64,000 bases of DNA from Eledone cirrhosa (Eukaryota). The translations under genes and the position numbers were made by a program. The notes beneath the pieces are model-generated. The model was not told the origin of the DNA and made no database searches. It saw only the letters and a program-made list of their open reading frames with translations. Below are positions 25,251 to 63,957 of this stretch, in pieces (the stretch's first letter is position 1; each line of letters starts with the position of its first letter). The DNA lies in the NCBI GenBank assembly GCA_964016885.1, contig OZ024741.1:90086001-90150000 (forward strand). Direction: 5' to 3'.

Positions 25251-25639
25251 ATATTAATAAAAGGAATTCCAACTTTGTCTGATTTACTCGTTTTATTTAC
25301 AATCCTTTAAAATTTATGATGGTATTAGAATGAAATAGTATGGTAGAATATTAAATGTTAAGTGTTAATTGAACAAGTACTTTCATGCTTTCGCAATCTT
25401 CAGGTTCATAATGTGTGGTGACAGTATAGTTTGCAATTTTCAACTGTTGAAAATTGCAAACTATACTGTCACCACACATTATGAACCTGAAGATTGCGAA
25501 AGCATGAAAGTACTTGTTCAATTAACACTTAACATTTAATATTCTACCATACTATTTCATTCTAATACCATCATAAATTTTAAAGGATTGTAAATAAAAC
25601 GAGTAAATCAGACAAAGTTAGAATTCCTTTTATTAATAT
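25251..25639. mobile_element. Near-perfect palindrome (about 194-bp arms, 1-nt spacer) with one HHR per arm; non-autonomous PLE-like insert
   Basis: Centre TTTTCAAC-T-GTTGAAAA at 25445; arms reverse-complementary with about one mismatch. Confidence 0.88.
25483..25519 (+). ncRNA. Minimal type I hammerhead ribozyme (mirror copy 25371-25407, minus)
   Basis: GAAC CTGAAGA T-TGC-GAAA-GCA-T GAAA GTAC TT GTTC: stem I GAAC/GTTC, GNRA-capped stem II, palindromic stem III AGTACT. Confidence 0.85.
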
Positions 25640-25640
25640 A

Positions 25641-25766
25641 TTAGCTGTCAGTGGATCTTCTAAGCCTCGTTATATATATATATATATATATATATATATA
25701 TATATATATATATATATATATATATATATATATATAACGAGGCTTAGAAGATCCACTGACAGCTAA
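25641..25766. repeat. Palindrome with 30-bp unique arms centred on (TA)n
   Basis: TTAGCTGTCAGTGGATCTTCTAAGCCTCGT (TA)n ACGAGGCTTAGAAGATCCACTGACAGCTAA. Confidence 0.9.
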
Positions 25767-61402: not shown

Positions 61403-61747
61403 ATATATTTTTATATATGACGCCAGTTTGTAATTTGAACTCGAAAATTTTATATTTTCCGAGTGAGAAAAGCCTTCTGGCGATGATCTCTTTGTCAATC
61501 GAAATCCGCTTGGATTATCTATTTATTTTGGGATCGGAAACCGCGGTAAAGGCACATATAGTAAGTAGAGTGAATTTTTTTAAATTTATCTTAAAACTTT
61601 TTCTCTATTTGCTTGATCTTGATTATATATGTTCTGGCTTGTCAATTTATTAACTTGCCATTGAACCACACTGGCATACGGTTGGAAAATACTTGTACCC
61701 CTATGTGTATTATTTACATGTAGGAATACATACTTTTATTATATATA

Positions 61748-63957
61748 TATTGTTATACTTTGGGAGGGTCATGTTGCCAATAAGAAACACACGCACCAGT
61801 TGCTTTCACTCCAATTTATTATAAATTAAATTTATAAATTTAAGAATTTATAAATTTCCGGTTGGTTGGTTGGTTCCACAACCGGTCGATTGTTCCTATA
61901 TTGTCAAAGTTATTTCGTCACACATTATGTGACCTCTTCAGTGACTGGGGATTCTTTTCTTTGTTTTGTGCCTCTCCTTTGTTCTGTCCTACGCCATCTT
62001 GTTTTTGTGTGTGTTGTGTGCTTAGTTTGCGCATGTGTTACATCCGGGTGTCTGTGTGTGTTTATATTTGTTTATTTATTTGTTTATTTACATGTTACTG
62101 GTTGGTTGTTTGTTCTATGTGTTTGTGTTTTCATTTTGTCCTTAATTGTAAGTTGTGATGTTGCTATTCCATTCATGTTTTCTATTTAATTTTGGTTGGA
62201 GTTCATTTATGTTTATTGTCTCTGTGATTTGTCTAAACATTGCGTCTTTTCTGTGTGCAGATTTTATTTTTATTTCTATGTTATCTAATTTTCCCTTATG
62301 TTCTATTTTAGCATGTTGGTGGAGTACTGATGATTCTTTTTTATCTTGAAGCTCTCGCCAGTGTTCATTTAACCGTTCTCCTCTACTACGAGCTGTCTCA
62401 CCTATGTACACTATATTCTTATCTTTACATTGTCCTTCAGTACATCTTATGCTATATACTATGTTTCTAGTTTTACAGTTAATATGGGGGCTTAGTTTAC
62501 AGATTATGCATTTCTATTCTATACAGGGAGATCTTTGAAAAGGGTATGTATTACTAATAAGTGTTTTTATGGAGGTACCTGGTCTTTCTACTATCTTAAT
62601 ATTAAGTTTAAGTTTATCTAGGGCCCTTATAAATTTGTAAGCTAATTCACCTCTAGGGGTTGTATTGATGAACATTACACTCTGGTATTTATTGCTATTA
62701 TATCATGAGTTTATTCTATTAACCTTATTCCTAGTTCTTCTATTCTATTCCAAAATGTGCTCCTATACAAGGGGCAGGTCCCATTTGTATCATTATTTAC
62801 CATTTTTTCCCATTTGGTTCTGGCTCCTCTATATACTCTGATTTTATCTCTCTGATTGTAACCAGAGAACTGCATACGGTGGATGAAGTGTTGTATGTGT
62901 CTCTCTAGTTCTTTGGGGTTGCACATACGGGACACGTTTCTCATCACCCGTACTAAATCCGCAATCAGTATGTTGATTTTGGTGTGATCCGAAACAGCTT
63001 TTGGTGGATCAGATATTTGGAAGTCATGGGTTTGGCATAAGGGGAATGGAGGAAATGTTTTTTTGTTATTAATGGTTTCTAACCAGAGCTCTGTGTCTAG
63101 TACAGGTAATCGATGGTTGGGGTGTTTGCTTGGGTAGTCTATAGTAACTATAATACTCTGGTGGATGGAGTTAGCTATTTGCTGGATGCTTTCCATGGTG
63201 TTTTTCTCTAAATCCTGACTGTTCTCTAGAGTGGGTATTTTTACTACGATGTTTATATCATCAACCGTACCGAAAGTACATTATCAGGGTTAAGAGGTTG
63301 CTTTCTTCTAATTGTTCTTTAAGTTTATTGTCCCACCATACCATGAATAGGTTAGCTTCAAGATAAAAAAAGAATCATCAGTACTCCACCAACATGTTAA
63401 AATAGAACATAAGGGAAAATTAGAGAACATAGAAATAAAAATAAAATCTGCACACAGAAAAGACGCAATGTTTAGACAAATCACAGAGGCAATAAACATA
63501 AATGAACTCCAACCAAAATTAAATAGAAAACATGAATGGAATAGCAACATCACAACTTACAATTAAGGACAAAATGGAAATACACATACATAGAACAAAC
63601 AACCAACCAGTAACATGTAAATAAACAAATAAATAAACAAATAAACACACACACAGACACCCGGATGTAACACATGCGCAAACTAAGCACACAACACACA
63701 CAAAAACAAGATGGCGTAGGACAGAACAAAGGAGAGGCACAAAACAAAGAAAAGAATCCCCAGTCACTGAAGAGGTCACATAATGTGTGACGAAATAACT
63801 TTGACAATATATGAACAACCGTCCGGTTGTGGAACCAACCAACCGGAAATTTATAAATTCTTAAATTTATAAATTTAATTTATAATAAATTGGAGTGAAA
63901 GCAACTGGTGCGTGTGTTTCTTATTGGCAACATGACCCTCCCAAAGTATAACAATAT
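61748..63957 (-). mobile_element. 5'-truncated Penelope element with inverted 3' segment (arms 61748-62352 and 63355-63957)
   Basis: RT/GIY-YIG fragments homologous to the 32137 ORF (MESIQQIANSIH, MYIGETAR); both ends read ATTGTTATACTTTGGGAGGGTCATG. Confidence 0.92.
63763..63805 (+). ncRNA. HHR in the Penelope pLTR (mirror 61903-61945, minus)
   Basis: GTCA CTGAAGA G-GTCACA-TAATG-TGTGAC GAAA TAAC TT TGAC; stem III decayed (AGATCT in the 46133 copy). Confidence 0.72.

Follow-up and report, generated by a model that had tools for sequence, protein, structure and literature searches.

Head-to-head hammerhead cassettes in (TA)n tracts of Eledone cirrhosa nearly always pair one proximal with one distal 3' end, probably through double target-primed reverse transcription

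An inverted copy of the 5' end, a tail on one side only and a bias for (TA)n targets have been described for Penelope-like elements (PLEs; Craig 2021, PMC8557442), and head-to-head is their most frequent arrangement (Arkhipova 2013, PMC3846280). How the inverted ends and the tails of PLEs arise is stated to be an open problem (PMC8557442). A PLE of the anole acts in vitro on both strands of its target, cutting and extending them, and two start sites bound the tail (PMC11167929). Dual minimal hammerhead ribozymes (HHRs), lying 100-700 bp apart on opposite strands, are also on record (Cervera 2014, PMC4209133). Retrozymes have been proposed to be PLE derivatives that are mobilised by PLEs (PMC7229834; bioRxiv 10.64898/2026.07.22.740005), and the latter source accepts both canonical HHRs, with loop 1-loop 2 contacts, and minimal HHRs for retrozymes.

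The window, the whole stretch of 64,000 nucleotides of Eledone cirrhosa DNA analysed here (contig OZ024741.1), contains nine inverted structures that the original prediction had described as ribozyme cassettes of one architecture. They are numbered 1 to 9 from left to right. All nine were recovered by self-BLAST of the masked window, with an arm identity of 94-100% in eight cassettes and of ~70% in cassette 7. When the right arms of the nine cassettes and of a further one at 40358 were cross-compared, a 33-nt match between cassettes 2 and 5 was the sole link, in line with the predicted origin from different sequence families. The left arm is on the minus strand and the right arm on the plus strand in 9/9 cassettes (for cassette 8, judged from the strand of its ORF and from the (TA)n-abutting ends in other copies). 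The head-to-head layout, with 5' ends at the center and 3' ends in (TA)n, was confirmed for the nine as well. An HHR motif is present in eight; cassette 8 has no confirmed HHR. The bounds first given had trimmed some tails, as cassette 1 runs from ~25200, cassette 3 from ~31104 and cassette 9 to 14 nt past the window end. Two further cassettes (24690-24845 and 40358-40920) had been overlooked, along with at least five single-arm copies (22928, 30100, 41121, 45968 and 31617).

Every cassette is a member of a dispersed family in the 3.0-Gb genome. A first look gave 272-2418 candidates per query, of which the best 40 were scored, a sample that favors young copies like those of the window. All seven families tested (7/7) have two discrete 3' ends running into (TA)n: a proximal end and a distal, tailed end. 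The tail measures ~39, 57, 58, 89, 114, 140 or 164 nt, depending on the family. Over all families scored, 148 of 156 inverted insertions pair one proximal with one distal end, against an expectation of about half under independent choice of ends. This rule, the most informative feature of the locus, was absent from the feature list of the original prediction.

In the four non-tandem families, 115/123 deduplicated head-to-head pairs have one end of each kind (121 unambiguous pairs; binomial against 0.5, p = 1.5e-27). The eight pairs that break the rule are four proximal/proximal, two distal/distal and two with partial tails; locus L440 was a misread internal unit. The three tandem families obey it in 33/33 pairs. 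Pairs at locus edges (non-tandem families) and pairs less than 90% covered (tandem families) were dropped from these counts. Bystander pairs, unselected by a query for their own family, give 24/26, and bystander ends, counted before deduplication, comprise 73 distal and 60 proximal. With tail-only queries, an inverted partner was seen for 31/40 and 21/38 copies; about a quarter to a half of the tailed copies thus stand without one. The searches with cassettes 4, 7 and 8 gave diverged or partial relatives only, and these three were not scored for the rule.

Several of the cassettes derive from PLEs. Cassette 1 (25200..25640) is a palindrome of two solo PLE ends with a Neptune/Nematis-type linker. 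Its left arm carries the ~39-nt tail and its right arm stops at the proximal site; the HHR is intact in both arms (cores at 25403(-) and 25487(+)). In longer copies, the sequence goes on as a PLE ORF that encodes a CX4CxxC linker and GIY-YIG, so cassette 1 does not represent an independent non-coding element, and the count of seven non-coding cassettes was wrong in its case. The copies of this family have a common 5' end ~25 nt past a TATA-like string, which is probably the transcription start. A single-arm 3' stump of the same family, ending in (TA)n, is located at 22928..23050 (+). Adjoining the right end of cassette 1, a 30-bp perfect inverted repeat (25641-25766) faces inwards around (TA)33; it may be an inverted duplication of the target flank.

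Two cassettes are Hydra-type PLE ends. In the one at 24690..24845, the minus arm consists of the tail only (24690-24782) and the plus arm is a short proximal-ended piece, with (TA)n on both sides. In the other (40358..40920, HHR core at 40824(+)), the minus arm is the tail plus ~10 nt and the plus arm, 460 nt long, has the proximal end. The 40358 family forms the end of an element of 3.7 kb that has the motifs of the Hydra clade: DKT replacing DKG (frame of locus L433), a CxCX5C linker in the form CNCRNKSNC and (TA)n insertion. These three features define the clade (PMC8557442), and by this motif definition, the family is a putative member of Hydra; clade names are given here from linker motifs compared with that source.

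Cassette 9 (61748..64000) is a 5'-truncated PLE with the same linker type as cassette 1. RT thumb and GIY-YIG are encoded on the minus strand, in the arm with the proximal end. The shorter inverted arm starts at 63354 and carries a 57-nt tail that ends in (TA)n beyond the window. A single-arm copy of this family, lacking an inverted partner, occupies 45968..46868 (-). Another single-arm PLE remnant, at 31617..33450 (-), has a 454-aa open frame covering the C-terminal part of the RT and the endonuclease. In cassette 8 (58809..61404), inverted 300-bp ends bracket a broken minus-strand PLE ORF, of which the 5' half is present and only N-terminal RT motifs were read by eye. An ORF with RT and C-terminal GIY-YIG was found for cassette 1 (L025/L435), cassette 9 (window, L442) and the 40358 family (L431, L434). 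The Pfam matches of these parent ORFs (GIY-YIG, E = 2e-4 and 4e-4; RVT_1, E = 4e-3 and 6e-4) are all below the Pfam cut-offs. A minimal type I HHR is present in the terminal repeat of the same three families and is not confirmed for cassette 8. Cassette 1 and the 40358 family are hence truncated ends of coding PLEs. Their flanks, like those of the other families, are usually (TA)n on both sides, which would hide target-site duplications.

The second group is made of tandem units, each with one type I HHR, found at several loci. Cassette 2 (28222..29012) has a 530-bp unit: a short, proximal-ended minus arm (28222-28322) without a core faces ~1.3 units on plus with a 114-nt tail and the only HHR core (28768(+)). 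Cassette 3 (31104..31566) is the 3' piece of a 2077-bp non-coding unit. Its short minus arm (31104-31251), with a 140-nt tail, has the core at its very start and no 5' strand of stem I, and the longer plus arm (core at 31464(+)) has the proximal end. The largest, cassette 5 (36718..40051), holds inverted arrays of a 527-bp unit (about 500-570 bp over loci) that meet at 38705, with ~3.8 units on minus and ~2.5 on plus, six intact HHRs, a distal end on the left and a proximal end on the right. Cassette 6 (42221..43792; unit of 593 bp) has two units on minus with the proximal end and a plus arm with a 164-nt tail; its HHRs have a U3-A8 core variant (42380(-), 42972(-) and 43472(+)). The units of these four cassettes have a GC content of 0.35-0.44, longest Met-started frames of 48-116 aa and no real match to a PLE protein, and by sequence they fit non-LTR retrozymes. 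The predicted diverse set of non-coding HHR retroelements is therefore supported for cassettes 2, 3, 5 and 6, but not for cassette 1 and the 40358 family, which are coding PLE ends, nor for cassettes 4 and 7, which are without an identified parent.

In family 5, the microsatellite pattern inside the unit varies by locus, yet it is common to both arms of a locus. In the window, the units of the two arms are identical, and all seven carry a base unseen in 12 other loci. This locus-specific pattern is as expected from rolling-circle copying of one monomer, although the same picture could result from young source arrays or from polishing of the assembly. A PLE fragment on plus (35780-36670) abuts cassette 5; its motifs resemble the Hydra-type parent, and family-5-like sequence precedes it. 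Further to the left, a retroelement-like remnant (34000-35250) has a 314-aa minus frame without a Pfam match and, on the opposite strand, an HHR motif at 34022.

Cassettes 4 and 7 are old. Cassette 4 (33456..33861) is a perfect palindrome, with an HHR core mutated to CUCAUGA in both arms. The identity between its arms is 98%, yet none of the best relatives scored exceeds 84%. In cassette 7 (50720..51335), the HHR is intact on the right (51177(+)) and decayed on the left (50902(-)). Neither a tandem unit, an ORF nor a parent was established for these two, among relatives 72-89% identical.

The HHR motifs are more frequent than expected by chance. A custom scan found 12 exact-core type I HHRs in the window and none in each of 10 Markov shuffles. 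In 400 kb taken as eight unselected 50-kb blocks at round coordinates, 15 strict HHRs were found, against 1, 0 and 0 in three shuffles. A looser scan additionally picks up cassette 2 and the U3-A8 variant of cassette 6. Cassette 9 has the core and helices I and II, with a loop III that is not palindromic. In cassette 8, there is a core-like string only, with no helix II, and the string is absent from 28 other loci of the family. The motifs of the retrozymes resemble the minimal HHRs of PLEs. The folding energy of 10 motifs was unremarkable (z from -1.96 to +0.08); hence, the ribozyme call is based on the motif pattern and not on stability or activity. In an Rfam scan of the window, no hammerhead family appeared among the best 150 of 493 matches, nearly all of which were microsatellite-driven miRNA. 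Over all fetched loci, strict matches show 20 distinct palindromic helix III types, several of them combined with fully different helix II sequences, indicating that the putative HHR families are far more numerous than nine. HHR-like motifs outside inverted cassettes are seen at 48957(-), 58674(+), 41330(-) and 30197(-).

The outward polarity is not peculiar to the window. In the 400 kb, 11 of 12 resolved HHR-bearing inverted structures are head-to-head, which agrees with the predicted fixed polarity; the twelfth consists of two separate 90%-identical copies 480 bp apart, and one weak match on C6 was left out of the twelve. The original prediction had suggested that this polarity may be undescribed for the lineage, but it is already in print (PMC3846280; PMC8557442). 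It is a necessary outcome of target-primed copying from both ends, or of fold-back. The stretch G000:C14:20000001-20050000 starts with a satellite of ~80-bp period and has neither HHR nor inverted repeat.

Other repeats of the window are mentioned here for completeness. Positions 1-16318 form a 16-kb satellite with a 14-bp near-palindromic unit (1173 copies, 89% matches). A long degenerate coding-like stretch at ~17100-21080 (+) resembles, by eye, a non-LTR retrotransposon. A telomere-like array rich in CCCTAA, with periods of 18 bp and 268 bp, is found at 57103-57751, deep inside the chromosome arm, and copies of a SINE-like repeat (170-190 bp, 78-94% identical) occur at 17928, 21476, 35418, 53380 and 58107. 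Another palindromic, one-tailed (TA)n family, in which no HHR core was detected, is present at 22306-22430 and at G000:C5:30046045-30047257; two near-identical palindromes enclose a nested HHR palindrome.

As for the origin of the cassettes, we favor, with a probability of about 0.68, that they are head-to-head PLEs, solo PLE ends and retrozymes in (TA)n, made when both cut ends of the target primed on the same source RNA. The GIY-YIG endonuclease of a PLE would cut both strands of a (TA)n tract. Priming would then take place from both target 3' ends, from one of them at the proximal site and from the other 39-164 nt further downstream, at the distal site, where the two ends are observed. Both cDNAs would head for the 5' end of the RNA and stop independently; on a single RNA molecule, the second would have to displace the first. 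The 3' ends of the cDNAs would be end-joined with little microhomology or with inserted bases, as the shape of the junctions suggests, and the second strands would be filled in. Retrozyme RNAs with the same pair of start sites would be copied in trans, probably from circles by rolling-circle synthesis, into the inverted tandem arrays that are seen. As these arrays obey the same end rule as the PLEs, they provide sequence evidence of insertion by PLE enzymes, in support of the predicted mobilization by the PLE machinery. Most arms run through the HHR cleavage site, so hammerhead cleavage is apparently not needed for copying; arm 5' ends are not piled up there (2/38 and 2/40 tailed arms within 9 nt). 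A stricter form of this reading, in which a single RNA is always primed at two sites, with strand displacement, to give the inverted end and one-sided tail of PLEs, and circular retrozyme RNAs are inserted likewise as two opposed rolling circles, is held tentatively, at slightly less than even odds. The coupling of the start sites is not seen in vitro, as the anole PLE shows no start-site difference between the strands (Frangieh et al., PMC11167929).

The reach of the arms and their junctions bear on two ways of making one arm from the other. A simple fold-back would have the first cDNA bend back and serve as its own template, with a TA-like microhomology attaching the second arm to the target. 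The polarity would be correct and the arms identical, and a few short arms do end early at TA-like sites (L005, L017). Such a copy must sit inside the first arm, however. Of 115 pairs, 47 have a tail-less proximal arm that extends beyond the distal one on the 5' side by more than 10 nt; in 31 the distal arm is the one that extends further, and in 37 the two are equal. Moreover, eight of the 115 distal arms are essentially tail only, and in 5/33 tandem pairs neither arm contains the other. Since either arm may reach further 5', neither was copied from the other, and most pairs contradict fold-back, which is very improbable as a general explanation but may explain a minority. A self-priming hairpin fares better and is still unlikely: an antisense transcript would fold back and be extended, and the endonuclease would later trim one arm at the proximal site, leaving the tail on the other. 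This model, proposed in PMC3846280 with the endonuclease resolution suggested in PMC8557442, explains the head-to-head polarity, the sharing of alleles and the one-sided tail, and perfect palindromes are common in family 1. On the contrary, the fold requires base-pairing, and 53/97 junctions have at most 1 nt of overlap or inserted bases. Tail-only arms would demand a very large loop and a special cut, and the in vitro starts at both tail boundaries are target-primed on sense RNA (PMC11167929). Of seven family 1 palindromes inspected by eye, three have an unpaired central base that faces the tailed arm and four have one that faces the other arm, as if two cDNA ends had annealed across a mismatch. 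A 35-bp piece occurs six times in tandem at the inversion junction of a cassette 9 family locus (L095, G000:C3:311861173-311864482), suggesting repeated template re-priming during joining.

Double target-primed copying could also proceed on two separate RNAs, usually from one source locus, if a PLE dimer formed an asymmetric complex that sets the proximal and distal starts. This variant shares part of the weight of the favored reading and, taken by itself, is a little less probable than the hairpin. It gives the same end rule and independent 5' truncation, and a dimer is predicted for the anole protein (PMC11167929). Displacement becomes unnecessary, and the distal-arm 5' ends show no clear pile-up at the proximal site (2/40 and 4/38 within 10 nt), such as a roadblock on a single RNA might give. 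No reason for the asymmetry is known, and the alleles are simpler to explain with one molecule. Apart from the locus-private alleles on all units in family 5, minor alleles (those in at least three other arms) are on both arms in 71 cases and on one arm in 50, where independence would place 14.6 on both. Arms are also closer within than between insertions in 72/83 pairs. Gene conversion can likewise make arms alike and probably occurs, as in cassette 4, but private alleles are on both arms in just 36/282 cases, so conversion alone is a poor explanation. Together, the pairing of the ends and the alleles of the arms support the predicted priming from both target strands. Finally, we give very little credence to an assembly artefact or to the chance pairing of independent insertions in one (TA)n tract. 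Inverted repeats do trouble assemblies, independent neighboring copies do occur, and none of the reads and contigs aligned to cassette 2 spans its junction in the window. An artefact, however, would duplicate an arm exactly, whereas the arms have different fixed ends, 1-6% divergence and inserted bases at the junctions; independent insertions would show intervening target DNA and all combinations of ends. The family of cassette 2 is present in reads and contigs of the same species and of a second organism. Of two RAD runs, one has raw reads across two strand-switch joints of the family (three reads each), and run X1 has 13 contigs in which the proximal end passes into (TA)n.

In comparison with the EN+ PLEs (PMC3846280; PMC8557442), the cassettes have the same head-to-head inverted 5'-truncated copy, one-end tail, (TA)n bias, minimal HHR in the terminal repeat and RT with a C-terminal GIY-YIG. 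There, the tail is given as 30-40 bp long and is said to occur 'often' or 'optionally' at one end. Here, it was counted, measures 39-164 nt by family and is carried by the short or the long arm. The anole Poseidon element PAc likewise cuts AT-rich DNA and extends both of its strands, has two start sites that bound the tail and uses uncleaved RNA as the template (PMC11167929). In the part of that paper available, inverted insertions are not discussed, the lone 'inverted' being a blocking dT, and unlike this Poseidon element, the parents here have Neptune/Nematis-type and Hydra-type linkers. The dual minimal HHRs of Schistosoma are also on opposite strands, were ascribed to truncated PLEs and include the U3-A8 variant of cassette 6 (PMC4209133); ends, polarity and mechanism are not analyzed in the accessible text. 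Metazoan non-LTR retrozymes are likewise built of AT-rich tandem units that are non-coding and contain a single type I HHR, and inverted arrays or tails are absent from the main texts consulted (PMC7229834; bioRxiv 10.64898/2026.07.22.740005). Those described here differ by units of 527-593 bp and one of 2077 bp, by PLE-type minimal HHRs and by inverted arrays with PLE tail ends.

A further parallel is the twin priming of L1, in which both target strands prime on one RNA and a 5' inversion results. L1 differs in that its second primer initiates upstream and its arms are free of overlap. In the cassettes, copying would begin at a fixed 3' site on each side, and as a rule both arms hold one and the same sequence. 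Taken as elements, they are unexceptional within the known PLE and non-LTR retrozyme classes. Their architecture and tail, the preference for (TA)n, HHR pairs on opposite strands and the derivation of retrozymes from PLEs have all been published before. Searches by mechanism and lineage, with older subscription literature outside their reach, found no publication stating the end-pairing rule or inverted retrozyme arrays. The quantified rule of one proximal and one distal end is what is new here. Its strictness, together with the free 5' truncation on either arm and the sharing of alleles, narrows the models of the mechanism, and it gives exact predictions for the existing in vitro PLE system. 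Earlier, the mobilization of retrozymes by PLEs was based on co-occurrence and sequence similarity; the end signature on the retrozyme arrays adds evidence at the level of the insertion.
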